Positions 36,822 to 56,232 of a stretch of 64,000 nt of DNA are shown in pieces (position 1 is the first letter of the stretch; each line of letters begins with the position of its first letter). The stretch is taken from contig JBAXTD010000001.1 of NCBI GenBank assembly GCA_037130335.1, positions 103,419-167,418 on the forward strand. Reading direction: 5' to 3'. The translations under genes and the position numbers were made by a program. The notes below the pieces were generated by a model. That model had not been told where the DNA came from. It worked only from the letters and a program-made list of their open reading frames with translations, and did not search any database. The DNA comes from a bacterium (GTDB lineage Bacteria; Patescibacteriota; Minisyncoccia; Phycocordibacterales; UBA9973).

Positions 36822-37232
36822 TTTGTTCCGATTGGATGATCGCGCAAAATTTATTTTGTGAGGAAAGTCCGAACACGCAGCTCTGGGCGGATTTTTTGAA
36901 AAAAACTTTTTTTCAAAAAATCCGCCCAGAATTAAACGTAGTGGGTAATTCCCATCGTCCGCGAGGATAGCGGTGCGAGCAGTGACGCTTTGAGGCGAAA
37001 GCCAAAAAGCACCCCGAATTTTTGGGCTTGCCCAAAAATTCGGGGTGAATTCCTCTGGAAACCTAGGAAGTGAAACGGCAAAATCCGTACGCGCGTGCAA
37101 GATCGTGTTCGGGCGGCCCCGCTTTGCGGGGCCGCCCGAAAGAATCGCTCGAGGATAGAGGTAACTCTATTCCCAGATAAATGATCATCGTCTCGCAAGA
37201 GATACAAAATTCGGCTTATAGGTCGGAACACT
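36822..37232 (+). ncRNA. rnpB: RNase P RNA (bacterial type A).
   Basis: P4 5' strand gaggaaagtccgaacac. 3' region agataaatgatcatcgtctcgcaagagatacaaaattcggcttataggtcgg matches the E. coli AGAUGAAUGACUGUCCACGACAGAACCCGGCUUAUCGGUCAG. P1 pairing is tgttccgattgg / taggtcggaaca. gtgaaacggcaaaatccgtacg is a P10-12 analogue. Confidence 0.85.
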
Positions 37233-37406: not shown

Positions 37407-38936
37407 ATGAAAAAGTTAATTACTTTTATGGCATTAATCGCCATCGCAATTTGCGCAAAAGCGCACAATGTTATTCCAGTATCTTCTGTAAAGATGCCTG
37501 GAGCATTAACAGCAGTTGTTACTGTAAAAAAGGATACCACAGTGGTTCCTATTTCAGATTCACTATGGTACAGAGTTTTAATTTATGCTGACTCTAATCT
37601 TACTGGTACGCCAATAAGTGGGCCGTGGGATTCAGGTACTGTTTACATGTTCACTAAGACAGTGCCGATACCTGACACTATATGCTGCGCTATGGTCATA
37701 GAAACAAAGCATCGGGATACAATAACCCATGCTCTGGTTTCAGATGTGTCGCATTTTGTGATAATGAGTAAACCACCTACTGGATCTGTTACGTATACGG
37801 TATCAACGGATTCTATTTATTACAACCTTAATGTAAAAGGGGGAAATAATAATGGAGTTCCGGTGCTAATTGAAGCGTTTACGGATACTACATGTATGTG
37901 GGCTTTTGGTTCAAGTACAATGTACTACGTAAGCGGTCCGAGTAATTTTAACTTTACTGGGGCTGTTAGAGCTCATTTTTATTCAGGTATGTCTTATTGC
38001 ATTCGAATTACGGTAACTAATCCAGTAACCGGAGTTAAGGTGTTAAAACAAATCGTAACTACTGCTACTCCATTTACAACATTGCCATACGTTGAGCTTT
38101 CCAGCCCAACCACGGCAACTGATACGTCAGTAAATATTTTTATCGGATTAAATTGTTTCAGCAGGAAATCCCTCGATACTTTGTATTTAAGGGACAGCAC
38201 TGAGGTCACCTGGTCTCGTGTGATTCCAATCAGCAATTTATTCGATACAACAATTACTGGGTTACAGACACAGACTGTACATGTGGGTGGATTACATCCA
38301 TCACATACGTATTTATACGATGTGAAAGTAAAAAATATCGTTGGTCCGACGTTATTAGGCACGCAACGTATCCAAACATTGGATACACCTGTGTTTACAG
38401 GTAGTACCAATACATTTGCGTTGCTGTCTGTGAACGCCACATATAACGCAATGGCCGATAGTATTATTTACAATGTTTATGTAGGCAATGTTGTTGGTGG
38501 TACATCAACAATTAATGCTGTGTTGGATAAAGCTGGAAGTGTGATTTACTCAATAATGCCTGTGACTAAATCAGGTCATGGTATTGTGCGGGTTGCTTTC
38601 CCAGTATCTGGTGATACAGGAAATTTTCAAGTGTACGCATGGAGTTATGATGACTTAGGATCTACGGACTCAACTGGAAGTTATGTTGCGTACACGTCAC
38701 ATGTTCCAGTTCACGTTCCAGGTAAAAATACAACTGGAATATTAGATGTTACTGAAAACAAAAATTTACACGGCTGTGTAAATTTCTATTCAGAAATTGG
38801 GGAAGTTGTTGGAAAATATAAATGTACGTTTGGAGAAATTAATATGATTGCTCCTAATAATAAATTTATTATTTATGAATTCATCTCCGATGACGGTCAG
38901 TTTACTAATCGCCAAAAAATCTTTGTCCAAAGATAA
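37407..38936 (+). CDS. Secreted Thr/Val-rich beta-rich protein (Ig/FN3-like repeats likely).
   Basis: Signal peptide followed by 490 aa of low-charge, Thr/Ser/Val-rich sequence. Confidence 0.5.
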   Translation: MKKLITFMALIAIAICAKAHNVIPVSSVKMPGALTAVVTVKKDTTVVPISDSLWYRVLIYADSNLTGTPISGPWDSGTVYMFTKTVPIPDTICCAMVIETKHRDTITHALVSDVSHFVIMSKPPTGSVTYTVSTDSIYYNLNVKGGNNNGVPVLIEAFTDTTCMWAFGSSTMYYVSGPSNFNFTGAVRAHFYSGMSYCIRITVTNPVTGVKVLKQIVTTATPFTTLPYVELSSPTTATDTSVNIFIGLNCFSRKSLDTLYLRDSTEVTWSRVIPISNLFDTTITGLQTQTVHVGGLHPSHTYLYDVKVKNIVGPTLLGTQRIQTLDTPVFTGSTNTFALLSVNATYNAMADSIIYNVYVGNVVGGTSTINAVLDKAGSVIYSIMPVTKSGHGIVRVAFPVSGDTGNFQVYAWSYDDLGSTDSTGSYVAYTSHVPVHVPGKNTTGILDVTENKNLHGCVNFYSEIGEVVGKYKCTFGEINMIAPNNKFIIYEFISDDGQFTNRQKIFVQR

Positions 38937-39630
38937 AAATAATAAATGGACGCATCATAATAGCTTCGACTTTCTTAAATGAAAGCCGGAGCTATTTTTT
39001 TTTATTCTATTTTTATAGTATCTAATTTACTAGACACATTTTTTATATTTGATATACTCTCTGTGTGAGTATGGTTCTCCAATGAATTATTACAAACAAT
39101 TGCCTACGCAAGGCCCGCCTCACGGCGGGTTTTGTGCTTTTGGGAGAGATGGTATATACTCTAAGTACGTTCCCACATATCGTGGTGAACGTCTCCACTC
39201 ACATAGGCAATTGTGTTGGAGTTCGGACACGCTCACCACAATGTGTGGAAGCAAAACAAAAAATCGTTCATCGAAAGATGAGCGATTTTTTGTTTCTAAT
39301 TTTTTAATAGTATTAAACATAATTTTGTGAATATAATTTTGCGTAATAAAAAAAATTTTTGAAAAATAAAAATAAATTAATTAAAAAAATAAAATAAAAT
39401 AAAAAAACTTTTTCAAAAAAATATTTTTTATTTTATTTTTAAAAAAGTTTTCCACATATTTCGTAAAAAATAATTGCGAATAATTTTTGATTGTAGGATA
39501 ATTACTGTAGTTGCGATTTGATTAGTGCGCAAAAATTTTTTGGAAAAATATTTTTTAAATTTATTTTCAAAAAAAGTTGCGCGGTCGAAATCAAACGCCA
39601 CTTAATAAAAATAATAAACTCAAAAATTTT

Positions 39631-39702
39631 ATGGCAGCAAAAAAGAAAGCAAAAAAGGCAGCACCAAAAAAGAAGGTTGCAGCAAAAAAGAAGCGAGCAT
39701 AG
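39631..39702 (+). CDS. Candidate micro-protein, 23 aa, Lys/Ala-rich (MAAKKKAKKAAPKKKVAAKKKRA).
   Basis: ATG-initiated ORF followed immediately by two hairpin terminators (39722-39755, 39766-39784). Too short for the ORF track. Confidence 0.35.
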   Translation: MAAKKKAKKAAPKKKVAAKKKRA

Positions 39703-39721
39703 TTTTATTTGTTCCGCTCAA

Positions 39722-39755
39722 GAAAACAACTCCTCACGGAGTTGTTTTCTTTTGG
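39722..39755 (+). terminator. Rho-independent terminator after the micro-ORF.
   Basis: gaaaacaactcctcacggagttgttttc followed by ttttgg. Confidence 0.6.
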
Positions 39756-39823
39756 GGCGGGTTTTCGCGAAGCGAAAACCCGCCATTCCAAAAACCTTCT
39801 TTTTGTGCTAGAATTAAGGTCTT

Positions 39824-42337
39824 ATGGCTATATTACAGAATCTTTTTGGAGATAGTAAAATGAAGTTTGCAAACAGTGTAAAAGCGGTTGTGGCAGAAGT
39901 TGCATCATATGAAGACGAGCTCAAAACCCTTGAGGATACTGTATTTCCCGAAAAAACAGCAAATTTAAAACTACGATATAAAAACGGAGAAACGCTAGAC
40001 CAATTATTACCCGAAGCATTTGCGCTTGTGCGTGAAGCATCACGTCGTGCTATTGGTCAACGTCATTACGATGTACAAATTATTGGAGGTATTGCACTTC
40101 ATCGAGGCAACATTGCAGAGATGCGCACCGGTGAAGGAAAGACATTGGTAGCAACGCTTCCAGTGTATCTCAATGCGCTTGCTGGACGTGGCGTGCACGT
40201 CGTGACTGTGAATGATTATCTTTCACGTCGTGATGCGGTATGGATGAGTCAGGTGTATCATTTCCTCGGACTTTCTGTGGGTGTAATTAATTCACAAAAT
40301 ATTTCCTATGTATATGATCCTACACACACCGAAAAGCAAACTGAACAAGAAGGAGTTTCTGTATACAAAGTTGTATATGATTTTTTGCGACCATCATCGA
40401 GACGTGATGCATACAACGCAGATATTACGTATGGTACAAATAATGAATATGGTTTTGATTATTTGCGCGACAATTTAGCAACACATGCAGAAAATTTAGT
40501 TCAACGTGATCACTTTTTTGCTGTTGTAGATGAAATCGATTCAATTTTGATTGATGAAGCACGTACACCACTTATTGTTTCTTCTGATTCAGAAGAGTCA
40601 GGAAGTTTTTATAAAACATTTTCTGATATTGCTTCGCAAATGATTGCAGAAGAAGATTTTACTGTAGATGAAAAACGCAAAGCAATTTCGCTTACTGATG
40701 CAGGAATTTCAAAAGCAGAAGCAAAACTTGATATCAGTAATATTTACACCGAAAAAGGAATCAAATATGTTCATCATCTCGAAACCGCAGTGCGTGCAAA
40801 GGCATTGTTTATTCGCGATCGAGATTATGTTGTCAAAGATGGTGAGGTAATCATCGTCGACCCATTTACTGGACGTATGCAGCCGGGTCGTCGTTGGAAT
40901 GAAGGCTTGCATCAAGCAATCGAAGCCAAAGAAAGTGTAAAGATTCAAAAAGAAACTCGCACGAGTGCATCGATTACATTTCAAAATTATTTTAAATTCT
41001 ACGAGAAGCTTTGTGGAATGACAGGAACTGCACAAACAAGTGATGAAGAATTCCGTAAAGTATATGGCTTAACTGTTGCAGTAATTCCAACTCATCGCGA
41101 AATCAAACGTGTTGATCACAATGATTTAATTTTTCAAACAGAAAAGGGTAAATGGCAGGCGATTGCGCGCGAAGTCAAAGCTCGTCACGAAAAAGGTCAG
41201 CCAGTACTTATCGGTACGATTTCAATTGAACGCAATGAATTACTCTCTGCGTATTTGCGTGATGCAGGTGTGCCACATACGCTCCTTAATGCCAAGAACC
41301 ACGAAAAGGAAGGTGAGTTGATTGCTCAAGCAGGTAAGCGTGGAGCAGTAACTGTGGCGACAAACATGGCTGGACGTGGAATTGATATTATTTTAGGTGG
41401 TGTGCCAGCAACCGATGAATCAAAAGAAGAAATCCGTGCGCTTGGTGGATTGTATGTGCTGGGAACAGAACGTCACGAGGCACGTCGTATCGACAATCAG
41501 CTTCGCGGACGCGCAGGACGTCAGGGTGATCCAGGCGAGACACAATTTTTTGTTTCGCTCGAAGACGATCTCATGCGTGTGTTTGGATCTGACCGTATCA
41601 AAAACATGATGGGACGTTTTGGAATTCCAGAAGACCAACCAATCGAAAACAGCATGATTACAAGTGCACTTGAAACTGCTCAGAAAAAAATCGAAGGATT
41701 TCATTTCGATGCTCGTAAATACACACTCGAATACGACAACGTGCTTTCACATCAGCGTGGAATTATTTATTCTCGTCGTCGTACAATGCTTCTTTCCAAA
41801 AAGGAGGACATGCAGACATATCTCGATCAATTCATTGGCGTAGATTCACACGTCGCCACTCTCGTTTCTCAAAAACGAGCGGCATTTGGTGATGATGCGT
41901 TCTTTGAAACATTTCGTCGAATTGTGTTGTTTGTCACTGATACACTGTGGATTGAACATCTCGAGACAATGGAATATTTGCGTTCATCGGTAAATTTGCG
42001 TGCATATGGTGGACGCGAACCGCTTGTCGAGTATCAACGTGAAGGTTTGCGATTATTCAAAGATTTGGAAGCAAGTTTCCGTGAACAAGTAATTGATTTG
42101 GTTGAAAAAATGTCTGAGCAACCCGTGATGCAAAACACACCAATCGAAATTCCCACACCACAAACATTCACTGCAACTCACATGGAACCAGAGGAACTAA
42201 CCGGCAAAGTGGAAAAGAATTCTCCACTCGCACAAAATAATTCTCAATCAAAATCAGAATCAAAAGTAGGTAGAAACGACCCATGTCCATGCGGTAGCGG
42301 CAAAAAATACAAGAAGTGTCATATGAATGGGAACTAG
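39824..42337 (+). CDS. secA: Preprotein translocase ATPase SecA.
   Basis: N-terminus MAILQNLFGD...EMRTGEGKTLVATLP (Walker A), DEAD-like VDEIDSILIDEARTPLI, C-terminal zinc finger CPCGSGKKYKKCH. The last five codons lie inside the attL repeat. Confidence 0.95.
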   Translation: MAILQNLFGDSKMKFANSVKAVVAEVASYEDELKTLEDTVFPEKTANLKLRYKNGETLDQLLPEAFALVREASRRAIGQRHYDVQIIGGIALHRGNIAEMRTGEGKTLVATLPVYLNALAGRGVHVVTVNDYLSRRDAVWMSQVYHFLGLSVGVINSQNISYVYDPTHTEKQTEQEGVSVYKVVYDFLRPSSRRDAYNADITYGTNNEYGFDYLRDNLATHAENLVQRDHFFAVVDEIDSILIDEARTPLIVSSDSEESGSFYKTFSDIASQMIAEEDFTVDEKRKAISLTDAGISKAEAKLDISNIYTEKGIKYVHHLETAVRAKALFIRDRDYVVKDGEVIIVDPFTGRMQPGRRWNEGLHQAIEAKESVKIQKETRTSASITFQNYFKFYEKLCGMTGTAQTSDEEFRKVYGLTVAVIPTHREIKRVDHNDLIFQTEKGKWQAIAREVKARHEKGQPVLIGTISIERNELLSAYLRDAGVPHTLLNAKNHEKEGELIAQAGKRGAVTVATNMAGRGIDIILGGVPATDESKEEIRALGGLYVLGTERHEARRIDNQLRGRAGRQGDPGETQFFVSLEDDLMRVFGSDRIKNMMGRFGIPEDQPIENSMITSALETAQKKIEGFHFDARKYTLEYDNVLSHQRGIIYSRRRTMLLSKKEDMQTYLDQFIGVDSHVATLVSQKRAAFGDDAFFETFRRIVLFVTDTLWIEHLETMEYLRSSVNLRAYGGREPLVEYQREGLRLFKDLEASFREQVIDLVEKMSEQPVMQNTPIEIPTPQTFTATHMEPEELTGKVEKNSPLAQNNSQSKSESKVGRNDPCPCGSGKKYKKCHMNGN

Positions 42338-43914
42338 AAAATAAAGTCGATTTCTACCTTGTTGTCTCCGGCTCGAATCTCCTTGATAATACTGCGTAAA
42401 ATCATCTTTTTCTCATCCAGTTCCATCTTGTCCCAGCAGGCATCAAAATCCTTCAAAGAGGCCACTAATTTGCGTGTTACAGCCACTTTCTGTGCGGTAG
42501 TGGTTGAGAGTAGAGATAAGCGTTCCACCTCCACACGGCTTTTTTGGATTTCCTGCCTAATCCTTGAAATATGCGCATCCAGTTGCTCCAAGGTTTCGAC
42601 TCCTTTTTCATAAGCTTCTTGATGTCGTTGCTCTCTGGCTGGACCTGATTCAATATCTCGGTTTAATCGAGCAATCGTTTTTTCTCTGTCATTTTCTTCC
42701 TGGTTGCCAGCCGTATAAGTTATATTTTCTTGGACCTTGGGGTGCGAATACAGATTTTTTATATGATCCAAAACTGCGCCTTCCAACTTGTCGGCACTCA
42801 TCACTCTTTGAGAGCAAATGCCTTTGTATTTGTATCCCGTGCAGATATATTCAAAAGTCGTTGTATCTTTCCATTTTGGATTTTTGTCAGATCTCTTGTG
42901 GCGACGTTTTTGATAGCCAACGCCGCTCTTGCAGCGGATGCATTTTGCAATTCCGGTGAGAACCCCTAGGGACCTCCCAGCTCCGCCTTTTGCGTGCTTG
43001 GTCCTCCCAGCTCTAATTTCTTTGACGAGGTTAAAAATAGTTTCGTCTACGATGGGGGAGTGTTCGCCATTTCCCACATACCCAACCTTGCCACGTCTCT
43101 GCCATTCCTTATTTTTCTTGTAGTCGGCATGTCTCCAGCCCCACCACACTTTGCCTGTGTATGTCGGATTGGCCAAAATATATCTGATGGTTTGGATACT
43201 CCAATTTATTCCATTGGGAGCGCTCCATCCCTTTTTATTCATTTCGATCGCTATTTTTCTGTCGCCATTGCCCCGAGCATATTCATTGAAGATAAAGCGG
43301 ATTTTCTGCGCTTCATCCTCGTCAACGATGACCGTCCTTTTTATTTTATTACCCTCCAGTGTTCTTACGACTTTGTATCCGTAGGGCACGCGGTTTGGTA
43401 TTTTCCCTTCTTTCGCCTTTATCATTTTTCCGCCCTTCATTCGACGATTGATGGCCGTTCGTTCGAGATCGGCTTTCATGTCTGAGATTGTCTCCATGAT
43501 CGTCGCCGAATCATTGTCGTCTGGGTCGTACTCGCTGACCGACTTTGGCTCGACAGGGGTGTTGATCGAGTAGGTTTGAATCCCGAGCCCTTTTAGTTCT
43601 TGCCGGATGATGGCGGCCGCATCTTTGTTTCTGGCAAATCTGTCATAATCCTTTACTATGATGAGGTCAAATTTATGTTCTCGCGCATCCCGCATCATGG
43701 ACTGCAATCCATGTCGCTCCTCCGTCAAATGACCGCTCACTCCTTCGTCTGTGTATTCCTGAAAAAATATCCATCCCTTTTCAAGTATCACCTTGTGGCA
43801 ATCTCTAATTTGCTGGGGGATTGAAGTTTTTTTCTGAGCTTGCTCTTGAGTACTCACTCTTCCATACGGAGCGACTCTCAAGCTCGTATTCACTGCACCT
43901 GCATTTCTATCCAT
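42334..43914 (-). CDS. Large serine recombinase.
   Basis: N-terminal resolvase domain with the catalytic Ser in YGRVSTQEQ, plus a recombinase domain, Cys-rich zinc ribbon (CIRCKSG...C) and C-terminal coiled coil. Its stop overlaps the secA stop by 2 nt. Confidence 0.8.
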   Translation of the reverse strand: MDRNAGAVNTSLRVAPYGRVSTQEQAQKKTSIPQQIRDCHKVILEKGWIFFQEYTDEGVSGHLTEERHGLQSMMRDAREHKFDLIIVKDYDRFARNKDAAAIIRQELKGLGIQTYSINTPVEPKSVSEYDPDDNDSATIMETISDMKADLERTAINRRMKGGKMIKAKEGKIPNRVPYGYKVVRTLEGNKIKRTVIVDEDEAQKIRFIFNEYARGNGDRKIAIEMNKKGWSAPNGINWSIQTIRYILANPTYTGKVWWGWRHADYKKNKEWQRRGKVGYVGNGEHSPIVDETIFNLVKEIRAGRTKHAKGGAGRSLGVLTGIAKCIRCKSGVGYQKRRHKRSDKNPKWKDTTTFEYICTGYKYKGICSQRVMSADKLEGAVLDHIKNLYSHPKVQENITYTAGNQEENDREKTIARLNRDIESGPAREQRHQEAYEKGVETLEQLDAHISRIRQEIQKSRVEVERLSLLSTTTAQKVAVTRKLVASLKDFDACWDKMELDEKKMILRSIIKEIRAGDNKVEIDFIF

Positions 43915-44092
43915 TTTTAATTTCTAAAAATCGTAATTTTTTTAGTCCGGACATACTAAAAGGACGGTCCTGGCTGCCCAATATACTTGCTCCGTAGGAG
44001 TAGACATAGTGGCAGGACCGCCCTTTTAAGGTCGCTATATCTACTTTATTCCTACACTTTCGTATATCAGGCAGCATAAACATTATACCACA

Positions 44093-44296
44093 TTAAGCCT
44101 CTTTTTGGAGCTCTCTTTGGACGATTTTGTTGATAAGACTAGGCATCAATAGAGACAATTTTTCAGCAAGAGAGTCAACGTCCGTGCCAGCAAAAAATAC
44201 ATCCACAGATGGTCCGCTCTCATCATTGGTCGTATTCTTTTTGGCTGGTACGATTGAGGTCATGTAAGTGTTACTTGTCCTATTTATTTCTTGCAA
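44093..44296 (-). CDS. Hypothetical small protein (67 aa).
   Basis: ORF overlapping the integrase 3' end by 17 nt. No domain. Confidence 0.25.
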   Translation of the reverse strand: MQEINRTSNTYMTSIVPAKKNTTNDESGPSVDVFFAGTDVDSLAEKLSLLMPSLINKIVQRELQKEA

Positions 44297-45392
44297 GAAT
44301 GTCTCGAAAAACCCGAAGTTCTTCTTCGGTCAGGGAACCGTCCTTGTGTTCTCCTTGTGAATTCTTCAGGCTTTTGACGATTCTGATGGCCTCGTTCGCG
44401 GTCATGTTGCCGTACCCATACGAACCGAATGTCGTGGCGACATCTTCGTGTCCCAAGTTGAGGCTGACTGCCTTCTTTTCCTCCTCGGTCAGTCGCTTCT
44501 TGCTCACGATTGCCACCGCCAAATTCCTGAACGAGTGTGGATGATAGTAAGGCATACCGGCTGAGAGGTATCGTTTCTGGAGAATCTTCCGCGCCGATCC
44601 GGAACTGCTCCAAAAATCTGTACCGATCGTTCCTCTGCTGTAAGCGCTCTCGCCAGTTTCAAGATCATTCTGTGTTGTAGGGAAAATCGGATCGTCCGGT
44701 CCGAAGCTCTTCGACTCCAGATATTCGTACCACTCCACGAAGTACCGCTCCGGGTCGTCCCAGCCGAGAGGGAAAAACGTACACAGGATACGTTTCGAGC
44801 TTTTGGTTTTGACGCCGTCCGCGGGGTTCTGGTCGATAACTTTTTCCTGTTTATCAAAACTCTTCATCTTGAGCGTAATGATTGCCGAAATGCGGGCACC
44901 TACCGTAAAGGCAAAACAGATGAGCGCTCGATCGCGCATGTCTATCTCATTTTTGATTTCAATGCCCTCTATGAGCTTCCGGATTTCCTCGAATGTGGGA
45001 ATCTTTTTGGTTGTGCTCTGTCGGGCGATGCGAGTATCCTTTTTGGAAAGACGTAAGTATTCAATATCGCCTTTTGCCATCTTGCTTTTGTACCCTGGCT
45101 GGTCGGAGAGCCATTCGAAAAACTTCTTTACACGGCGGAGATAGTTGTATCGGGTGACAATAGCGATTTTTCCCGTCGGAGTTTTTGACGATTTTGTCTC
45201 AAGCCACTCGACGAACGCCGTCGCCTTCATTTTGTTGAAATTGGCGAAGTCCTCGTTCCCTGTAAAAAGTTGCCACTTGGCAATCGCTCCAGCAAAGACG
45301 AGGATAGAGCCCTTGGTGAACCCTCGGGCACCCAGGAGTTGCTCTAAAAAGTCCCGCTTCGCCTTTTCATTTTCGTATGGTATGTCTGTCAT
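44280..45392 (-). CDS. Tyrosine recombinase / phage-type integrase.
   Basis: SAM-like N-domain. Catalytic R...HPHSFRN...LGHEDVATTFGSYGY (R, HxxR, Y). Confidence 0.8.
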   Translation of the reverse strand: MTDIPYENEKAKRDFLEQLLGARGFTKGSILVFAGAIAKWQLFTGNEDFANFNKMKATAFVEWLETKSSKTPTGKIAIVTRYNYLRRVKKFFEWLSDQPGYKSKMAKGDIEYLRLSKKDTRIARQSTTKKIPTFEEIRKLIEGIEIKNEIDMRDRALICFAFTVGARISAIITLKMKSFDKQEKVIDQNPADGVKTKSSKRILCTFFPLGWDDPERYFVEWYEYLESKSFGPDDPIFPTTQNDLETGESAYSRGTIGTDFWSSSGSARKILQKRYLSAGMPYYHPHSFRNLAVAIVSKKRLTEEEKKAVSLNLGHEDVATTFGSYGYGNMTANEAIRIVKSLKNSQGEHKDGSLTEEELRVFRDILARNK

Positions 45393-45398
45393 AGCCTG

Positions 45399-45632
45399 TT
45401 ATTTCAGTGGTAACGGGGTCGGTTTGAGCGGTTTCAGGGTTTTTGCCATTCTTTCCAAGAGCATGATGTTGGGCAGTAGGTCATTCGCCGCCTGAAACTG
45501 CTTTTTCTTGACGCAAACTTTTTGGATTTTTTTGAGATGTTCGATTTCCGACTCAAGCGCGGAGAGAACGTATGGGATATTTTTAAGACTGATGTTGAGG
45601 CTTATTTTTTCTTCGGTTGATGGAGTTTCCAT
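45399..45632 (-). CDS. Hypothetical small protein (77 aa).
   Basis: Lies between the xis-like gene and the integrase. Confidence 0.3.
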   Translation of the reverse strand: METPSTEEKISLNISLKNIPYVLSALESEIEHLKKIQKVCVKKKQFQAANDLLPNIMLLERMAKTLKPLKPTPLPLK

Positions 45633-45776
45633 GGTGTTAATTTCTGAGATTTTGTTTGTAATAATGCTCGACTGTTTGATTCATTTTTGCTGACTATTTT
45701 TGTCGTGATTTCGGTATGTGCGCCCACGGTTCATAACAGACATTTACGTTAGAAGAGAGGGTATACCATAGTCCTT

Positions 45777-46130
45777 TCAGGAGGGTCTGATTGTCCGGCT
45801 CATCTTCCTGTTGCAGACACGGCATTCGCCTGTTTTTCGGTTCGCCAATTTTCTAATCGTGCCCCGTTTTGCTAGTCGTGCGGCTCTGCATTTGAAGCAG
45901 TAAAACTCACACCGCTTCAACTTCACTTTTTTCTTGGAATCTTTTTTTCGCAAAAATTCTTTGATGTCGGAGCCCAGCAGGAGGATCGGTTTCTTGCTTC
46001 CTTGGACGATTGGCAGGCCGCTCTCGATCCAGCGTGAAATGGTTTTTTCAGTGGCGTCCACATCGTTCGATAGTTCTTTGATCGTGTAACTGATATGGTC
46101 ATATATTTTTTGACGGTTTATCCGTGTCAT
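45777..46130 (-). CDS. Excisionase-like HTH DNA-binding protein with a C-terminal zinc ribbon.
   Basis: YTIKELSNDVDATEKTISRWIESGLPIV HTH (Xis/MerR-type), plus CEFYCFKC...CRVC. Confidence 0.5.
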   Translation of the reverse strand: MTRINRQKIYDHISYTIKELSNDVDATEKTISRWIESGLPIVQGSKKPILLLGSDIKEFLRKKDSKKKVKLKRCEFYCFKCRAARLAKRGTIRKLANRKTGECRVCNRKMSRTIRPS

Positions 46131-46141
46131 CGGATTCCGCT

Positions 46142-46426
46142 CTATTCCGAGTAGAGTTTGTTCTTTAGCGCCTTCATGTGGTCAAAATACGACCGGGCTT
46201 TGACCTCCAAGCGGTTCGAGAAATACTTGTCAGTTACTTCCTCGATGCCACTTTCCTTTTTGAACATAAACAGAGCTTTGCGCGGATTGCTTTTTTCAAC
46301 CGCTACAAGCTCAAAATCCGCACATAGGAGTGCGGCTGATACACCGAGGTCGTACGTTGTCCACACGAAATCGGGGTCATCGAGCGGGATGGACCCGCGA
46401 GATGCTTTCTTTGCTTTGTTACTCAT
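46142..46426 (-). CDS. Hypothetical protein (94 aa).
   Basis: Immediately downstream of the 582-aa gene on the same strand. Confidence 0.35.
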   Translation of the reverse strand: MSNKAKKASRGSIPLDDPDFVWTTYDLGVSAALLCADFELVAVEKSNPRKALFMFKKESGIEEVTDKYFSNRLEVKARSYFDHMKALKNKLYSE

Positions 46427-46597
46427 CGTAATTTTAGCTAGGTTTTGTAATATGAGAGTGTTCCTGCTCTCAATTACAGTTTTGATTTTTTGGAATGTTC
46501 TGCGTATTTCTTGTGATTTCTTGGAAACGCAAAATCCACCTTTATTTCAAAGGTGGATTTTTTCTAGAGAGAGCGATTTTTCAAGAAGTCACAGGAT

Positions 46598-48346
46598 TTA
46601 GCCCATCTTGTTATTGAAGCTCACTCCGACGGCTCGTACTATCTTGATGAGTGGTTTTCCATTATCTTCCGTTTTTGCTATTTCGGCGTATCGTAGAAAT
46701 CCGTTGCTCTTATCGGTGAGATTCGTTTGTATGAACTTCCGCATTTCCTCGTCATTTTTCGATTTTAATTTCGGAATCCGGCTCTTTACTTCGGCGAATA
46801 GTTCCTCATATTTTATCTCTCCGCCCTCGGGTCGGGTCGCATATAAAGCGCTGAATGTCTTGTAGTAATCAGCATCTTTTGAAAGGCCAAGCACGCCGCC
46901 CTTATACTTAAAATCGTCGCCATTTTTTGTGATATAAAAAAGATTTTGCGGATTTTTTTCGTACTTATTTAGTACCTCAATTTTCATTACGCCATCTTTT
47001 TCGGGAGTGACTTTTTTAGTCCTTTGCTCTGAAATGAGCTTTGTTATCTCTTCGAGCTGTTTTTCTTCGTCTGTCATTTCAGATTTTTCCTCGCCAAGAA
47101 TACATAATTTTGTAATCTCGCTATGCGTGCTATACAGCGATGGCCTGATTGTATCCCAAGACAGAACAGGACCAAGCGTCTCCGTCGGATTTTTAGGGTC
47201 GCCGTTCCATTCCATTTCGGCAGAATACAGATCGCCCTTAAATTGCTTGCAAGGATTGATACGATAGTGTTTCAAGGACAAACCGCGCGTGATGGTTTCG
47301 ATTTTATTTTTGAGCAAAAGGTAGGCGCTGTTCAGCTCCTTTGTGGGGTGGGTGATGTTCTCGCAAAAAATCTCAAGAATATCCATATATGCCTGGTGGT
47401 GTTTTCTCAATTCCTCGATTACATCTTTTTTTGCGAGCGCTGTCGCTTTGTCCTGCAAAATATCTTTTTCCTCCCATTCGAGTAAGACGTCGTCTGGTAA
47501 AATTGGCTGTTCTTCAAAACTTGTTATGATGTACTCGTTCCCGAGACGCTCGACAAGAAAATTATCATATTTCAAATACTTTTCTAGTTTTACAGCAAGC
47601 TCATCCGTCCTCTTCTCGTTGGCGTTGTGATTGAGCGGATGGAGGAGTGTTGTGATTATTTCTTTGATGGTCCAGTTTGCGTTGATGGCTTTTTTACGGA
47701 TAGTTTGTAGAACATCGTCAAAGTTGTAAAAAGAATTTTCTTCAAACAAGTCATCCACTAAGTAGGCGTGGATTACTTTTTGATTATAGAGCGCAGGTTC
47801 CTCCTCTATGATCGGTGATATAATTTTTCTTATAGCAAAATTGGTGAGGTAATTGTTGATTTCCTCCGCGACCAATTCAAGAACCTTCTCGCTGAAAGTG
47901 CCACTATTTATATCGGGCAATTCTTTGACTTCATCTTTTGTTGTTTCTTCCGAATTGATTTCCTCGGTGTCGTCGGTGATCGGCACGATTTTTGCAATGC
48001 GTTCGTCTGATTGTATCCGTAGGTTTTCGTAAGAAAGTACCTGGTTTAGCCCGTCAATAAAATTTTTTCGTAATTGCAAATCGGTGAAATTTAGTGGATG
48101 ACAAAACTCTTCAAGAACGCTAAAAAGTCCATCCTCTGTCGGTATTTTACCGAACGCATCAAGTGTTATTCGCCATTTGGCGTAGAGTGCTACGTCGGTA
48201 GAGATATGAGCATCCGTAAAGACATTCACGATCTCGTTTGTCGTAAATTGTCCCGCTATTAAGCGAGCGATTTTTTCTTTGACTCGAACACTGATTTTCA
48301 TAGTTGAGAGTAATAGTAATTTTCTTGCACAATTGAATCCTAGCAT
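46598..48346 (-). CDS. Large uncharacterised island cargo protein (582 aa, mostly helical).
   Basis: No recognisable catalytic motifs. Divergently transcribed from the AbiE pair. Confidence 0.5.
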   Translation of the reverse strand: MLGFNCARKLLLLSTMKISVRVKEKIARLIAGQFTTNEIVNVFTDAHISTDVALYAKWRITLDAFGKIPTEDGLFSVLEEFCHPLNFTDLQLRKNFIDGLNQVLSYENLRIQSDERIAKIVPITDDTEEINSEETTKDEVKELPDINSGTFSEKVLELVAEEINNYLTNFAIRKIISPIIEEEPALYNQKVIHAYLVDDLFEENSFYNFDDVLQTIRKKAINANWTIKEIITTLLHPLNHNANEKRTDELAVKLEKYLKYDNFLVERLGNEYIITSFEEQPILPDDVLLEWEEKDILQDKATALAKKDVIEELRKHHQAYMDILEIFCENITHPTKELNSAYLLLKNKIETITRGLSLKHYRINPCKQFKGDLYSAEMEWNGDPKNPTETLGPVLSWDTIRPSLYSTHSEITKLCILGEEKSEMTDEEKQLEEITKLISEQRTKKVTPEKDGVMKIEVLNKYEKNPQNLFYITKNGDDFKYKGGVLGLSKDADYYKTFSALYATRPEGGEIKYEELFAEVKSRIPKLKSKNDEEMRKFIQTNLTDKSNGFLRYAEIAKTEDNGKPLIKIVRAVGVSFNNKMG

Positions 48347-48456
48347 CTTTTTCTATGAAAACTAAGTGTTTTTTGTTGTTCTCAAAACTTGCTGTTATTT
48401 TAAGATATGCTAAACTGTTTCCAAAGAGTGCTATAAATAGCATCTTTTGGAAATAT

Positions 48457-49083
48457 ATGCAATATCAAGAATTACGTCAAAAACTCAAGGATTTCAGTGT
48501 TTTTTCGCTTTCAGACATTCGAAAGATCGAATCTGATTTTCATCGTCGTCGCTTGAATGAATGGCAAGAAAAGGGTTATATCAAGAAGCTCCGTCGCGGA
48601 TACTATATTTTCTCCGATCTCTTAATCTCCGAAGAGACGCTTTTTCTCATTGCCAATCGTCTTTATAATCCCTCGTACGTATCACTTGAGATGGCGATGT
48701 CGCGCTACGGATTGATTCCTGAGTCGGTCTATGGCGTGACTTCAGTTGGGAGTAAAAAGACCGCCGATTTTAAGACACCGATAGCAACTTTTCTATATCG
48801 CAGTATCAAGCCGTCGCTTCTTTTTGGCTACAAGCTGGAAGGAACAAAGAAGCAGAAATATAAGATCGCCGAGATTGAAAAGGCGGTGTTAGATTATCTC
48901 TATTTCAACAAACATTTATCCGCTGACGATGATTTTGAGGGGATACGTTTCAATGGCGAGGAGTTTCTAAAAAAGGCTGATATGTTGAAGTTCGAGCGAT
49001 ACCTCAGAGTATTCAAGAATAAAAATTTAACAGAGCGGGCTGGTGCGCTTATCAATTATATAAAGAATAACAACCATGCTTAG
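48457..49083 (+). CDS. AbiEi-family antitoxin / transcriptional regulator (type IV TA / Abi).
   Basis: N-terminal wHTH MQYQELRQKLKDFSVFSLSDIRKIE...GYIKKLRRGYYIFSD typical of the AbiEi N-domain. Start placed at the internal ATG 48457. Confidence 0.65.
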   Translation: MQYQELRQKLKDFSVFSLSDIRKIESDFHRRRLNEWQEKGYIKKLRRGYYIFSDLLISEETLFLIANRLYNPSYVSLEMAMSRYGLIPESVYGVTSVGSKKTADFKTPIATFLYRSIKPSLLFGYKLEGTKKQKYKIAEIEKAVLDYLYFNKHLSADDDFEGIRFNGEEFLKKADMLKFERYLRVFKNKNLTERAGALINYIKNNNHA

Positions 49084-49852
49084 CCTTCAAGAAATCGAAG
49101 TTCAGTATCCAGAAAACCTACGCCCCTTCAAGCGCAACATTTTGCGTGAGTATTTGCAATACAAGATTTTGGAGATCATCTTCAAATCGTCTCACGCGGC
49201 TAAGCTTTCCTTTCTCGGGGGTACGGCGCTCCGAATCGTCCACAACAACAGTCGCTTCTCGGAGGATCTTGATTTTGATAACTTCGGGCTGGAAGAGAGT
49301 GAGTTCAATGCTATCGCCGAAGAGGTAAAAGCAGGGCTCGATGCTCTTGGATTGAAGACGGAAATCAATACTGTGATGAAGGGAGCATATCGTTGCAACG
49401 TCAGACTTCCTGAAGTGCTTTTTGTGAATGAACTATCTCCCTTGCAAGAGGAAAAGATATTGATCCAGATCGACACGGTCCCACACCAGTATCCATATAC
49501 GCCTGACAAAAAAATCCTCAACAAGTTTGACGTGTTTTCGGAGATCTTTGTCACGCCCGTGTCGCTCTTGCTTTCACAAAAAATCTGGGCTGCCATCAAT
49601 CGCAAGCGAGCAAAGGGTCGTGATTTCTACGACATCGTCTTTCTCTTTTCTTTCACTAAACCTGAGTACCCGTATTTGATGCAGAAGATCGGTGCGGGCG
49701 ATGGGGAAGCGGTTCGACAAAAGCTACTCGACTCTATCCAAGACCTAGATTTTAAGATGCTTGCTGACGATGTTCGTCCGTTCCTATTCAATCCGGCTGA
49801 TGCACAGAAGGTTGAGCTTTTCAGGGAATTTGTAGTTCAAGTAGAGTTTTAG
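49076..49852 (+). CDS. AbiEii/AbiGii-family nucleotidyltransferase toxin (DUF1814).
   Basis: LREYLQYKILEIIFKS...LSFLGGTALRIVHNNSRFSEDLDFDNFG is the hallmark N-terminus. Overlaps AbiEi by 8 nt. Confidence 0.7.
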   Translation: MLSLQEIEVQYPENLRPFKRNILREYLQYKILEIIFKSSHAAKLSFLGGTALRIVHNNSRFSEDLDFDNFGLEESEFNAIAEEVKAGLDALGLKTEINTVMKGAYRCNVRLPEVLFVNELSPLQEEKILIQIDTVPHQYPYTPDKKILNKFDVFSEIFVTPVSLLLSQKIWAAINRKRAKGRDFYDIVFLFSFTKPEYPYLMQKIGAGDGEAVRQKLLDSIQDLDFKMLADDVRPFLFNPADAQKVELFREFVVQVEF

Positions 49853-49867
49853 TATAATTGCAAATAT

Positions 49868-50641
49868 ATGAATTTCGAATTACCAAAATTACAACGCATG
49901 CCAGATGAGCCATCAGGCAGTGCTGATAATGAGACAATAAAAATAGGAAAACAGTATAATGAGTTTGCTGAAAATTTCGCTGATAAACATAAAAATTTAG
50001 ATGAAATTACGCAAGCTTCTTTTCAAAAAGCACTATTAGGAATAGTGTTTAAAGACAAAAAAGTTATTGATTTAGGGTGTGGAGATGGTTACGATTTATT
50101 GAAACTGCAAGAAAAAGGAGCGATTGTTTACGGTCTTGACGCTTCTGAAGAAATGATAAAACTTGCAAAGGCAAAGAACAGCCAGGGTAATTTTGAGAAT
50201 GGTTTTTTTGAAAATATTCCTTATGCCGATGCTTCTTTCGATGTTGTTATAAGTAAATATGCAATGCAAACAAGCAAGGATGTTCCTAAAATACTAGAGG
50301 AAGTTGGGCGAATTTTAAAACCTGGCGGAAAACTTGTGTATGTAGTAACTCATCCAGTCAGACAATTTATGGAGAAAAAGAAGGCGAACAAGGATTATTT
50401 TGAACAAGAGGTAGTAGATTCTGTTTTGTTTGACGGTGCAATTACTGTTCACGAGCCATCGCACACCCTCGCTGAATATCTTAATCCAGAATTTTTAAAA
50501 AATTTCGACTTAACTTTTTACGAAGAAAAATTTGATCCAAGTAATGCTGAAATGGTAGAAGGCTCAAGTTACCCAGCTTTTCTTTGTGTTGGAGCAAAAA
50601 GAAAAAATGCGAGTGAATCAACAATTTCTCAAACAGCTTAA
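49868..50641 (+). CDS. Class I SAM-dependent methyltransferase.
   Basis: VIDLGCGDGYD motif I, DASEEMI, LKPGGKLV. Confidence 0.6.
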   Translation: MNFELPKLQRMPDEPSGSADNETIKIGKQYNEFAENFADKHKNLDEITQASFQKALLGIVFKDKKVIDLGCGDGYDLLKLQEKGAIVYGLDASEEMIKLAKAKNSQGNFENGFFENIPYADASFDVVISKYAMQTSKDVPKILEEVGRILKPGGKLVYVVTHPVRQFMEKKKANKDYFEQEVVDSVLFDGAITVHEPSHTLAEYLNPEFLKNFDLTFYEEKFDPSNAEMVEGSSYPAFLCVGAKRKNASESTISQTA

Positions 50642-50756
50642 TACCAAGTTAGAACTATTGTTATTCAATAATTAACTCAACAAAACCCTCCCTAGACGGC
50701 ATTAAAAAAGACCATGATTGAAATCATGGTCTTAAGTATCTTCGTCTAGGTGCACC

Positions 50757-51548
50757 TTATGCTCTTACTTTTTCAAGCAGGTTCTCCGTTGTAAATGGCA
50801 GTTGTAGATAATGAGGATTATCATTTGCCATCCACCCCGCAGCGATCACTCGCTGTTCGGGTTTTTTCGCCACTAACAATTTCTCAAAAACATCTTTTAC
50901 ATCTTTGCTTTTTACTTGCCCGTTAATCTCGCCTATAAGCAAGGTGATATCAGGATTTTTTTCAGCAAATGTAAGGGGGGCGTTTTCAGTACTCTCATTA
51001 GGGACAAAAATTACATTGAAGTCTGCCTTTAAGCTCTCTTCCAGTCTTTTTTTGTAGTCGTCATTGACTCCAATTAACATGAAAGATTTCTTAGTAGAAG
51101 CTTTCGGCTGCTCGCCAAGTTCGGCGTTCTCGATGGACATAAACCCTTCCGCTGCTGCCAGCCAGTTTTTGTTTCCCTGGTTGAAGCCGCTTACGAATGA
51201 GTTTTTGCCAAGGAGGCTGTCCATCGCCCAAGCTATGGGGCTCGCGTGATGACTGATGTCAGTCAATATGGCTACATGGGGAACGCCCGTGTTTTTTGCC
51301 AATATTGAAAGTATCAGACCGTACGGAGTGTCCTTACCGATTTCGGCTGTAGGGCCGACGCCTTCCTTCTCTCCCGGCATCATCAGATCCGTCAGCAGGA
51401 TGTCGAACTTCCTGGTTTTTAACAAGCCCACCGCCATGGAGTACATGGGGCAGCAAGTCAGGATGACATTTTTGCCGTTGAATTGTTTTTCTGCCGCATC
51501 AAGGTTTGCGCGCGTGTCGTCTACTACTAAGATTGCTATCTTTTTCAT
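50757..51548 (-). CDS. Orphan response-regulator receiver (REC) domain protein with an uncharacterised C-terminal half.
   Basis: ILVVDD (acid pocket) and DILLTDLMMPG (phospho-Asp) motifs. The C-terminal ~140 aa is unknown, possibly a second degenerate flavodoxin-like fold. Confidence 0.55.
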   Translation of the reverse strand: MKKIAILVVDDTRANLDAAEKQFNGKNVILTCCPMYSMAVGLLKTRKFDILLTDLMMPGEKEGVGPTAEIGKDTPYGLILSILAKNTGVPHVAILTDISHHASPIAWAMDSLLGKNSFVSGFNQGNKNWLAAAEGFMSIENAELGEQPKASTKKSFMLIGVNDDYKKRLEESLKADFNVIFVPNESTENAPLTFAEKNPDITLLIGEINGQVKSKDVKDVFEKLLVAKKPEQRVIAAGWMANDNPHYLQLPFTTENLLEKVRA

Positions 51549-51793
51549 ATTTGTTGATTTTAAGTTTGAAATTATTGGTTTATTTCAACCTCTCTGTCGG
51601 GAGGGGCTCAAATAAACCAATAAAGCTTAAAATCAAAGGTTATTAAGGATTTCTTAAATCTTGATTATATCATAGCATGTTTATATATAAAAGTCAAGGC
51701 TAATTCAGCCTCGGCTTGGCCAATTGTTGACTTTCTATAAATATATGTTATCCTATAAAAAAATCACTCTTTCAACTTTTAAATAGCACTTTT

Positions 51794-52111
51794 ATGAAGA
51801 AAATAATGGTTTTCGGTATTTTCGTTTGCTGCATCGCGGCCAGTTGTTCTAAGCGCCCCCAAGTTGTTAAAGTCCTGCCTGGCAAGCTCGTTCGAGTGAT
51901 CGGCAACGATGTATTCTGCCAGTTAAAGCTCGAAGTCGATACTTCACTGAAAGGAGGATTCGGCATTGTTGCCACCTCCTACAACGTATTCGATCACGAC
52001 GCCGAGAAAGGTGACAGTATGCGGGTGGCTCTGTATTCTGACGGGTCCGTCGAAGCTCATACGTACCGCATGCGTACGGACATCATGATCAGGGAGGATC
52101 GCGGGGACTGA
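51794..52111 (+). CDS. Small secreted protein or lipoprotein.
   Basis: Signal peptide MKKIMVFGIFVCCIAASCS. Confidence 0.4.
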   Translation: MKKIMVFGIFVCCIAASCSKRPQVVKVLPGKLVRVIGNDVFCQLKLEVDTSLKGGFGIVATSYNVFDHDAEKGDSMRVALYSDGSVEAHTYRMRTDIMIREDRGD

Positions 52112-52255
52112 TGCCAAAAGGAAAACGGGTGCGCCTATTCGTAAAAGTGCCCACAAATTAAGCCCTTGGAAAAACCAAGGCACTGTCGCAAGGTAATTGC
52201 TTTGCCTGATGAGTCCATGAGGACGAAACAGCTGTTCTTTACATAAAAAATCTAT

Positions 52256-53053
52256 ATGCTCAATTTCAAGGAGTTCCAAGCCAAAGCTCGGGAACTATTC
52301 GGCAAACTGAACTGCGATCCGGCCGGTGACGACCCCATCACATTTCTGCACTCCCTTCCCTGGGAGATACCGAACGGTCCTGCTTTTTCCGAAGAGGAAG
52401 TGGCACGAATGAATATCGACTTCGACGTGCGCGGCTGTTTCGGCCGGGCACTCAAAGCCGCAGTGTTGGTTGAGAAGTATTTTCCGAACGAAACTTTTTA
52501 CAACGGCGAGGTGCTCGAAGACTTGCTTCGCTCCATGCTAATGAAAAAAGTGACACCGGAAAAATGGCATGACGATACCTACGTCGCTGAGATTCTCCAG
52601 TATGAGAATCCGCACGTGGCGATCGTCTGGAACGATTCGCAGTTTGATCCAATCTTCAGTCTTCTGACTGACAGGCCGGAAACGCTCAAGCATCCGTCAA
52701 TATTGAAACATAGCCAATGGGAAGGATTGTACTGCTACTATCTCGTAAGCAGTGGCATGCTCTTGTTCAGACAAAAGCAAAATCCAAACCTATACTTGCA
52801 AGCTCTCAAGCAAGCCGAGGCGATCTGCCCGCACATGCTTCTCGTCAAAGAAAATCTGGTGAGCGCACTCTGCGCCCTGAACAGATTCGACGAGTCGGTC
52901 GCGATTGCGAAATCGCTGGTCGGAAAGCGCAAGGACGCGAAAATGCTATGGTTCCTATTGCAGATGACCGGAGACCCGGCGTACAAAGATCGGCTCGTAC
53001 GCGAGTATGACATCCAAATGCTTCACTTCTTAAACAAAGCGTTCATACCATGA
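52256..53053 (+). CDS. Hypothetical protein (265 aa, high GC).
   Basis: Helical, TPR-like C-terminus. Translationally coupled (ATGA) to the next ORF. Confidence 0.45.
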   Translation: MLNFKEFQAKARELFGKLNCDPAGDDPITFLHSLPWEIPNGPAFSEEEVARMNIDFDVRGCFGRALKAAVLVEKYFPNETFYNGEVLEDLLRSMLMKKVTPEKWHDDTYVAEILQYENPHVAIVWNDSQFDPIFSLLTDRPETLKHPSILKHSQWEGLYCYYLVSSGMLLFRQKQNPNLYLQALKQAEAICPHMLLVKENLVSALCALNRFDESVAIAKSLVGKRKDAKMLWFLLQMTGDPAYKDRLVREYDIQMLHFLNKAFIP

Positions 53054-56075: not shown

Positions 56076-56232
56076 TGGTCTTTTCTTATAGAGTTTTCTT
56101 AACTGCACGCCGACACCCGAATATTTTTTGTGTGCTAGAATAGGGAACATGACCACCGAAAAACAGACTATTTTAGCTTTCCCATTAGTACAACATGTCA
56201 AGAATTGTCACGGGAAATAAAAACTTTTTTTT

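Follow-up and report, generated by a model that had tools for sequence, protein, structure and literature searches.

The imperfect inverted repeat in the gap upstream of a large serine recombinase (integrase) gene of an uncultured CPR bacterium is one helix, here called helix C, of a conserved folded RNA, and not a DNA recombination site. The structure is ~120-140 nt in size, belongs to the integrase-sense (minus) strand, occupies a fixed position relative to a promoter box and to the integrase gene, and is separate from the attachment sites of the mobile element that carries it. In our opinion the repeat probably serves as the long-range helix of a minus-strand RNA, which would be either the 5' leader of the integrase mRNA or a short RNA ending before the gene. 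The RNA is best filed as a new family among the structured RNA motifs that are linked to recombinase genes of mobile elements. The coordinates of the features are collected in Table 1; they refer to the window, i.e. the whole stretch of 64,000 nucleotides that was analysed.

Table 1. Position of the RNA helices, genes, promoter box and attachment sites in the window
Feature	Position	Strand	Remarks
Whole structured RNA element	43937..44075	-	helices A, Bo, Bi and C, and the 3' hairpin/A-run
Helix A, 5' strand, GCUGCCUGAUAUAC	44062..44075	-	pairs with 43973-43986; 10/13 pairs change on both sides (12 sequences)
Helix A, 3' strand, GUAUAUUGGGCAGC	43973..43986	-	from repeat search and structural alignment
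Helix B, 5' strands	44035..44055	-	Bo 44050-44055 (GUAGGA), Bi 44035-44044 (GUAGAUAUAG), 5-nt bulge between them
Helix B, 3' strands	43994..44009	-	Bi 44000-44009 (CUAUGUCUAC), Bo 43994-43999 (UCCUAC)
Helix C, 5' strand, UAAAAGGGCGGUCCUG	44013..44029	-	right arm of the preliminary description; in the apical loop of helix B
Helix C, 3' strand, CAGGACCGUCCUUUU[A]	43957..43972	-	left arm of the preliminary description; directly after the helix A 3' strand, followed by a U-rich tract
Extended -10 promoter box, TGgTATAAT	44082..44090	-	ends 6 nt before helix A; consensus match only
Conserved small ORF, 56 aa from ATG	44093..44263	-	C-terminal motif LAEKL..LMP.(I)INKIVQRE; always precedes promoter and RNA
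Large serine recombinase, 526 aa	42334..43914	-	Resolvase, Recombinase and Zn_ribbon_recom domains; phrog_95 integrase
attL	42290..42333	-	directly after the integrase stop; P arm 42310-42333; central TT 42311-42312; runs into the resident secA
attR	56178..56220	-	original secA end joined to the P' arm (ACATGTTGTACTAATGGGAA); central TT 56200-56201

The inverted repeat and the RNA fold

The preliminary description of the window had reported two arms, 43958-43978 (aaaaggacggtcctggctgcc) and 44011-44029 (ggcaggaccgcccttttaa), separated by a 32-bp spacer. Arms and spacer are exact, and the repeat does lie in the gap 5' of the serine recombinase gene, which measures 178 bp from the stop of the small ORF at 44093 to the recombinase start at 43914 (minus strand). 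In a repeat search the gap-free core was 43957-43972/44013-44028, two segments of 16 nt which lie 40 nt apart and are complementary at 15 of the 16 positions (94%); the extra GCC/GGC of the arms described earlier falls outside this core, past a 3-nt bulge. The sole 'mismatch' of the core, a G·T, pairs on the minus strand as a G·U wobble. Further inverted repeats, forming a second set, are interleaved with the first in the same gap (43973-43986/44062-44075 and 43999-44009/44035-44045). When inverted repeats with at least 15/16 Watson-Crick matches and a spacer of 20-60 nt were counted, the window had 12 matches, and 20 shuffles preserving the local composition had 0. The remaining matches in the window either fell in a low-complexity stretch of A/T (39345-39451) or formed the outer portions of long palindromes of terminators.

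On the minus strand these repeats define a helix A of 14 bp, a bulged helix B of 6 + 10 bp, which was identified by the repeat search and the minimum-free-energy fold, and a helix C of 15-17 bp. Their strands follow each other in the order A-B-C-B'-A'-C', which is a pseudoknot topology. The structured core extends from 44075 to 43957 (119 nt), and the leader up to the integrase ATG is 161 nt long. Folding of the 171-nt region gave z = -2.6. Single-sequence folding favours the interleaved A/B set over helix C, the energies of the nested sub-folds being -49.0 kcal/mol (A+B) and -43.4 kcal/mol (C fold). RNAalifold, run on unedited MAFFT alignments of variants 1 and 3 (see below), predicted helix C with a short CCA:UGG extension and an inner hairpin. 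The modelled energies of the two stable sub-folds are similar, and a switch between them is conceivable; the pairs found only in the second fold, however, are almost without compensatory change. To have the full 15-17 bp of helix C together with intact helices A and B, helix A would have to be folded back along helix B. This arrangement seems plausible because the lengths of A and B match in each variant (14 vs 16, 13 vs 12 and 12 vs 11 bp).

Two other local structures were considered. A mini-hairpin, CUCC-UAC-GGAG, which RNAalifold predicted in place of Bo, shows almost no compensatory change and is left as a possible alternative state. In variant 2 (L031, L058 and L080) this mini-hairpin carries GNRA loops. 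A hammerhead-like 'CUGAUA...GAAA' pattern was discarded, its bases fall within the covarying helix A and it is absent in L001.

Conservation and covariation

We fetched 98 loci around relatives of the recombinase, almost all homologues of which come from CPR/Patescibacteria metagenome-assembled genomes. The palindrome recurs beside homologous recombinases: 25 other loci share the architecture of the window, 21 of them with the complete structure, and the integrases of these loci are 50-80% identical to that of the window. In all three variants the strands succeed one another as A-B-C-B'-A'-C', directly 5' of the recombinase gene and on the same strand. Variant 1 comprises L001, L002, L004, L022-L027, L037, L042, L077, L095/96 and L099, variant 2 L058 and L080 as well as L031, which is without the 5' strand of helix A, and variant 3 L006, L035/36 and L046. 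The full layout, in which a TGnTATAAT-type box is followed after exactly 6 nt by these strands and, behind them, by a short hairpin/A-run, was seen in the closest relatives (60-80% identity) and again in a clade at 50-54% identity. Next to recombinases with 41-49% identity no such structure was found, there a small gene of the HTH type (MerR/excisionase-like) abuts the recombinase instead. L028, L040 and L043 represent a simpler variant, whose C-like helix is placed at the extreme 5' end of the predicted transcript and has no U-run. In L039 and L041 the 3' strand of helix C is lost and the recombinase gene is intact, thus helix C is dispensable for the enzyme and termination is no universal feature of the family.

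The structural alignment was made by hand and fitted to the model. It contains 12 distinct sequences (the window and 11 of the other loci), and each row was checked to be a contiguous genomic sequence. Standard pairs occupy 97.3% of the 474 alignment cells, compared with 79.6% after shuffling and 33-48% when the partners were slid. Compensatory changes are frequent: 29 of the 46 pairs are altered on both sides, a number reached by 0/500 shuffles, although these statistics are inflated by relatedness, the ~12 distinct sequences coming from three or four lineages. The double changes are distributed over all helices (A 10/13, Bo 5/6, Bi 6/10, C 8/17). In helix C 98.4% of the cells pair, and there is a conserved G·U at GGGCGG/CCGUCC. 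Among the non-Watson-Crick cells of the alignment 28 are G·U and 3 are A·C, and one G·U position of helix C is kept in 9 of the 12 sequences. This asymmetry between G·U and A·C assigns the structure to the recombinase-sense single strand and not to duplex DNA.

A covariance model (R1) built from seven close loci had one match in the window, 43929-44077 (minus strand), with 150.7 bits; strong matches elsewhere were found only at the equivalent position. The sense strand scored ~150 bits and the antisense strand at most 29 bits. R1 is too sequence-specific for the distant variants, L035 scored 35 bits and L006 9.8 bits even with the filters off. The sequence of the proximal half of helix C (AAAGGG(G)C/G(U)CCCUUU) is kept in all variants, and the junction nucleotides show little conservation. 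From the sequences, the conserved proximal half with its G·U looks more like a protein-recognition helix than like a ligand pocket.

Promoter and coding context

In all 13 distinct loci of variants 1 and 3 the distance between a TGnTA(Y)AAT/TATACT box and the first G of helix A is identical, 6 nt. Judged from this consensus, transcription would start from the extended -10 box at about 44075, and the 5' and 3' ends of the RNA are likewise predicted. The ordinary genes of this genome have no Shine-Dalgarno sequence and have -10-like boxes within ~15 nt of the ATG, which makes a structured leader of 161 nt exceptional here. A Shine-Dalgarno/anti-Shine-Dalgarno role of helix C, which we considered, is moot in a genome whose genes are without Shine-Dalgarno sequence. 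Hexamers resembling a -10 box also occur 5-17 nt before the recombinase ATG, therefore the gene may have a promoter of its own, and the upstream structure may exist separately as a small RNA.

The terminators of the window are palindromes composed of an A-run, a stem and a U-run. Helix C has a similar, terminator-like form with a G+C-rich core, an A-run on the 5' side, and a U-run and then a U-rich tail on the 3' side. The stem, GGGCGGUCCUG/CAGGACCGUCC, followed by UUUUAGUAUGU, is the combination of G+C stem and U-tract by which intrinsic terminators are recognized, and the tails after helix C contain 5-9 U per 10 nt in variants 1-3. The consensus terminator scan did not call helix C; its 'loop', made by the folded A/B domain, is 40 nt long, as against 3-8 nt in such terminators.

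Protein-coding readings of the region were also considered. A 58-aa ORF (43907-44083) is not conserved, it has early stops in L022, L002 and L023. In L023, L024 and L001 a possible upstream ORF of 21 codons (MSTPTEQVYWAARTVLLVCPD) has a shifted frame or has lost its start codon, and it was judged to be incidental; the differences in it are non-synonymous yet compensated in the helices.

Attachment sites and limits of the element

In all close relatives the recombinase stop is followed by ~24 nt of conserved sequence (TTCCyATTnAnATGACACTTCTT), with or without secA behind it. In the window and in L001, L003, L004/L099, L005, L022, L023, L026/L027 and L029/L030 this P arm is followed by the body of secA in antisense orientation. 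In L024, L028, L031, L038, L041 and L053 it is followed by GAAnTGC...AATGGrAA and then by unrelated DNA. Each of these six non-secA sequences forms an imperfect dyad of 44 bp centred on the same TT (nt 22|23); they are free attP sites, and the corresponding sequence of the window, 42290-42333, is thus attL. The P arm, which derives from the element, encodes a replacement C-terminus for secA, KKCHMNGN*.

A search for the other end as a direct repeat of the secA end gave no match, as is expected of serine-integrase sites, which have only a 2-bp core in common; attR was then located with a crossover-spanning pattern. The secA remnant in attR reads, on the plus strand, AAGAATTGTCACGGGAAATAA, i.e. 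AAG AAT TGT CAC GGG AAA TAA, corresponding to KNCHGK*, and the P' arm matches the attP of L024 at 17 of 24 positions (counted by hand). In the B arm the TTCC motif lies closer to the centre by 5 bp than it does in the P arm, an offset that is said to be expected for large-serine-integrase sites from the Listeria integrase-attP structures of Rutherford and Van Duyne. The reconstructed attP is TTCCCATTCATATGACACTTCTTGACATGTTGTACTAATGGGAA, and by inference attB is the secA end ...GGCAAAAAATACAAGAATTGTCACGGGAAATAA. The element spans about 42312-56200 (13.9 kb) and is inserted in the end of secA of the uncultured CPR bacterium.

The preliminary description had considered that the repeat could be an attP/res-like site of the serine recombinase or the boundary of a nested element. 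The repeat is indeed part of the serine-recombinase module, but neither of these identities holds. The att sites of large serine integrases consist of two half-sites which abut a central crossover dinucleotide, they are ~40-50 bp long and have no long spacer. In the repeat, 40 nt (32 in the extended version) lie between the arms in place of a central dinucleotide. The repeat is not at an element-host junction, it lies 1.65 kb inside the element, and the true att sites are elsewhere. Moreover, 8 of the 17 pairs of helix C change on both sides, whereas the true P arm keeps its sequence in the same loci. With regard to res, such sites belong to small (~185-aa) resolvases and contain three dimer-binding subsites 5' of the gene, and large serine recombinases are not known to use them. 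The enzyme encoded here has 526 aa with Recombinase and Zn-ribbon domains, and no array of related subsites was found in 43500-44500.

A nested-element boundary is contradicted by the same distance from the element end and by the conservation of the module in elements which do not have the tyrosine integrase. Since the trio of small ORF, RNA and recombinase occurs also in such elements, there is no nested-element end at the repeat. The stop of the tyrosine-integrase gene is separated from the ATG of the small ORF by 17 nt, which leaves no room for an end there either. The two different recombinases, from which a composite or nested element had been suggested, are both present, but the tyrosine enzyme is Xer-like cargo and marks no nested element here. 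An integron attC-type site, which is recombined by an integron-type tyrosine integrase and recurs between cassettes, was also considered and rejected; the structure is present in a single copy in the window, and it is found beside serine recombinases in loci without tyrosine integrase.

Comparison with known systems

The covariance models of Rfam 15 (4227 families, E <= 1) gave no match overlapping the element (38000-52000) and none in six related loci. Searches of phage and plasmid collections with megablast and blastn gave no match to the region. Among viral contigs the protein scan yielded only an unrelated match of 23% identity, and the DNA pattern of helix C yielded none. No account of such an RNA, or of CPR elements that target secA, turned up in full-text searches of the literature; neither the integration site at the secA end nor attP, attL and attR of this clade were found in them.

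The RNA resembles the orphan structured RNA motifs described by Weinberg et al. (2010, 2017; PMC2864571, PMC5737381) in being short, supported by covariation, intergenic and associated with one class of mobile-element genes. It differs from those motifs in that it is tied to secA-targeting large serine recombinases of CPR bacteria and has a long-range helix interleaved with a two-helix domain. With attenuators and intrinsic terminators located in leaders it shares the G+C helix, the flanking A-run and U-tract, the position near an ORF and the alternative folds of similar stability. Unlike in those, helix C closes a structured insert of 40 nt instead of a 3-8 nt loop, the competing helices share no nucleotides with C except the possible CCA:UGG extension, and there is neither a conserved leader peptide nor a conserved junction resembling a ligand pocket.

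The bridge RNA of IS110 elements (Durrant et al. 2024, PMC11208160) is similar as a structured RNA of ~120-180 nt which lies directly 5' of a recombinase gene and travels with it. The enzyme of IS110 is a DEDD/Tnp protein, whereas the RNA described here accompanies a large serine recombinase with DNA-binding domains of its own, and the P arm of the att site stays constant while the helices of the RNA change. A guide function was looked for by comparing the 23-nt att arm of each locus with its own leader on either strand, and similarity and complementarity were at chance level in 7/7 loci. An att half-site mimic noticed by eye in the leader tail ('GTCCTTTTAGTATGTC'), which would have pointed to autoregulation or a guide, was also rejected; the systematic scan was at chance in 7/7 loci. 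With the attP and attB sites of large serine integrases the repeat has in common that it is an imperfect inverted repeat near the integrase gene, but it has neither the TT-centred 44-bp dyad nor the TTCC offset of the sites identified here for this enzyme family, which look canonical. The inverted repeat of ccrAB in SCCmec (Zhang et al. 2015, Antimicrob Agents Chemother 59:6223, cited in PMC9728531) also lies 5' of large-serine-recombinase genes and is linked to the control of their expression. That repeat is presented as promoter-region DNA, whereas the evidence for the structure reported here points to an RNA lying 3' of the promoter.

Proposed function and alternative explanations

Features of the sequence suggest a new cis-acting leader (or small RNA) which would control expression of the integrase by attenuation or through RNA stability. 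We favour a cis-acting leader because a structured leader is unusual in this genome and because helix C is terminator-like with a U-rich tail. The RNA would start at ~44075 from the extended -10 promoter (44082-44090) on the minus strand. The A/B domain could hold the two strands of helix C together, or it could compete with the fold consisting of C and its extension. The state of helix C might then set the amount or the stability of the transcript reaching the integrase ORF, and as a result integrase synthesis would be kept low or conditional.

It is possible, although we are inclined to doubt it, that the structure is an independent small RNA of ~120 nt, extending from the -10 box to helix C with its U-tract as terminator and acting in trans, and that the integrase is expressed from its own promoter. 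The U-rich tails of variants 1-3 (5-9 U in 10 nt) would suit such a molecule, and so would the A-run/stem/U-run form that helix C shares with the terminators of the genome. Genes in this genome typically have -10 boxes near the ATG, and in several loci the integrase ATG has TAnAAT-like hexamers in front of it. On the other hand, a structured 'loop' of 40 nt is atypical of a terminator and the terminator scan made no call, the L001-type tail (UUUGGUGUGG) is weak, and no target complementarity was found when the att arms were scanned against the leader, the matches being at chance level. The tight and fixed linkage to the integrase start does not decide the question, it is equally expected of a leader. 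We regard it as unlikely that the RNA is a cofactor or decoy bound by the enzyme or the small protein through the invariant AAAGGG(G·U)C segment, or a ligand-sensing, riboswitch-like bistable element. If the cofactor or decoy reading were true, the RNA would couple integration or excision to a cellular signal, and, on this reading as on the riboswitch-like one, no RNA component of a serine-integrase system would have been described before it.

Strand asymmetry and covariation alone do not separate RNA from single-stranded DNA, in which G·T wobbles are tolerated, and a published candidate RNA motif proved to match integron attC sites, such motifs being hard to distinguish by bioinformatics (Weinberg et al. 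2017, PMC5737381). With this precedent, and with TrwB and relaxase genes present in some relatives (L028), a single-stranded DNA structure on the integrase-sense strand, such as an initiation site or origin or a transfer-related hairpin, has to be considered. We give it a small chance, since a conserved extended -10 box at an invariant distance of 6 nt from the first paired base fits a transcript start and not a DNA origin, and since the structure is always 5' of the integrase gene and co-oriented with it although the replication and transfer modules differ. Still less probable, in our view, is an operator in double-stranded DNA, where the arms would be bound by a dimer of the recombinase, of the small upstream protein or of a host factor, with repression of the integrase promoter as the result. 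The sequence conservation of the proximal half of helix C in all variants would agree with a protein site, and the ccrAB promoter repeat, reported to act in this manner and to modulate ccrAB expression, is a precedent as cited in PMC9728531, but the arms are 40 bp apart and 3' of the -10 box, and three interleaved pairs of repeats are no operator layout. The distal half of helix C and the whole of helices A and B differ in sequence between loci but remain complementary, which would not occur in a protein site, and an excess of 28 G·U over 3 A·C is meaningless for duplex DNA. The att, res or nested-end reading discussed above can account for an imperfect inverted repeat next to a recombinase gene which is conserved beside homologues; we consider it hardly credible after identification of the true attP (a 44-bp dyad after the stop), attL and attR, and in view of the internal location, the 40-bp spacer, the covarying arms and the lack of space for a boundary.

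Large serine integrases are major tools of genome engineering, and little is known about the natural control of their own expression; CPR/Patescibacteria are genetically almost unexplored. This work adds a covariation-supported RNA family that travels with one integrase clade, and a set of sites for this clade (attP, attL and attR, with attB inferred), according to which insertion is precise in the last secA codons and a replacement C-terminus is supplied. It also defines a conserved module of three parts, small protein, RNA and integrase. Should the RNA prove to regulate or assist the integrase, it would offer a new handle on integrase control and would be one of the rare regulatory RNAs from CPR bacteria.

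Gene content of the element

The window contains no tRNA or tmRNA genes. Homologues of the small ORF were found in L023, L024, L026, L035, L095 and L099; the ORF has no match in Pfam, PHROG or NCBIfam. Besides the three-part module the element carries genes for the Xer-like tyrosine recombinase, HTH_17 and DUF5659 proteins, an uncharacterised protein of 582 aa, AbiEi/AbiEii, a methyltransferase, an IS3-type transposase and a trypsin-like protein. The cargo varies among related elements, which have PrimPol, an AAA_25 helicase, a DnaA-like ATPase or, as in the window, the tyrosine integrase.

Integration at the secA end

The 13.9-kb element is inserted at a TT within the final codons of secA, and its insertion swaps the SecA C-terminus from KNCHGK* to KKCHMNGN* (attachment sites in the table). 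Among the loci fetched around relatives of the large serine recombinase (L numbers), the secA stop overlaps or abuts the recombinase stop in L022, L026/L027, L029/L030 and L095-L099, and an antisense secA-like 3' end immediately follows the recombinase stop in L001, L003, L004/L099, L005 and L023. This arrangement was seen across different CPR lineages. A free attP is present in L024, L028, L031, L038, L041 and L053. As cargo, the element carries among other things an AbiEi/AbiEii toxin-antitoxin pair and a transposase of the IS3 family. The Xer-like tyrosine recombinase located inside the element could serve to resolve multimers of the circle formed on excision, or could represent a second integration system.

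Coordinates of features in the window and in related loci
Feature	Location	Strand	Remark
attL	window 42290-42333		one end of the element
attR	window 56178-56220		other end of the element
AAAGGTCGA motif, window version	window 43937-43953		TGTCCGGACTAAAAAAATTA
21-codon ORF	window 44007-43942	-	MSTPTEQVYWAARTVLLVCPD*
Small-protein ORF	window 44093-44263	-	upstream of promoter, RNA and recombinase
Small-protein homologues	L023:3318-3662; L024:1271-1468; L026:4662-4823; L035:4717-4866; L095:3653-3811; L099:651-812
Xer-like tyrosine recombinase	window 44280-45392	-	370 aa
Genes upstream of it	window 45399-46426	-	HTH_17 protein, 77-aa protein, DUF5659 protein
AbiEi/AbiEii pair	window 48355-49852	+
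Transposase (rve)	window 54306-55166	-	IS3 family
Degenerate leader copies	L039:~700-830; L041:~3960-4120
Direct repeats	L029:4600-4990		four, ~21 nt each
Perfect palindromes, 22-26 nt	window 59317-59368, 63238-63287, 36882-36930, 60915-60965, 34748-34793

Sequences around the RNA

The order small protein, promoter, RNA, recombinase is constant in the window, L023, L024, L026, L035, L095 and L099. The small protein is 49-65 aa long (114 aa in L023), has the C-terminal motif (L)AEKL..LMP.(I)INKIVQRE and matched no family in Pfam, PHROG or NCBIfam; we regard it as a candidate directionality factor or regulator.

Within the RNA region, a 21-codon ORF starts in the 3' strand of helix B, downstream of helix C's 5' strand, which is rich in purines. 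The frame of this ORF is kept in the window, L022 and L002. In L023, L024 and L001 it is frame-shifted or has lost its start; it is probably an incidental by-product of constraints on the RNA.

In other variants, the stretch from the structure to the recombinase start contains another conserved motif, AAAGGTCGA(C)..A-rich..TAA, 15-35 nt upstream of the ATG (L028, L031, L038-L041, L043, L054, L058, L080). This motif often falls within a short DNA palindrome (GTCGAC, GGTCGACC, GTCCGGAC), and could be an operator or a portion of the RNA. The degenerate leaders of L039 and L041 retain this motif and the 5' strand of helix C, the 3' strand being gone, despite which their recombinase genes are intact. 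The L029 recombinase is 67% identical and likewise integrated at secA; the region upstream of it lacks the RNA structure, and in its place has direct repeats (CGAACAAAAATGGCAAAAAAC) spaced by ~60 nt, which look like iterons.

Gene starts and terminators

No Shine-Dalgarno sequence was found at any gene start in the window (e.g. 1727, 9200, 49868, 58126). Many ATGs are preceded by a TATAAT-like box only 5-15 nt upstream, which suggests that mRNAs are leaderless or have very short leaders throughout the genome. The perfect palindromes have an A-run/stem/T-run form and lie between convergent genes; they are probably bidirectional intrinsic terminators.
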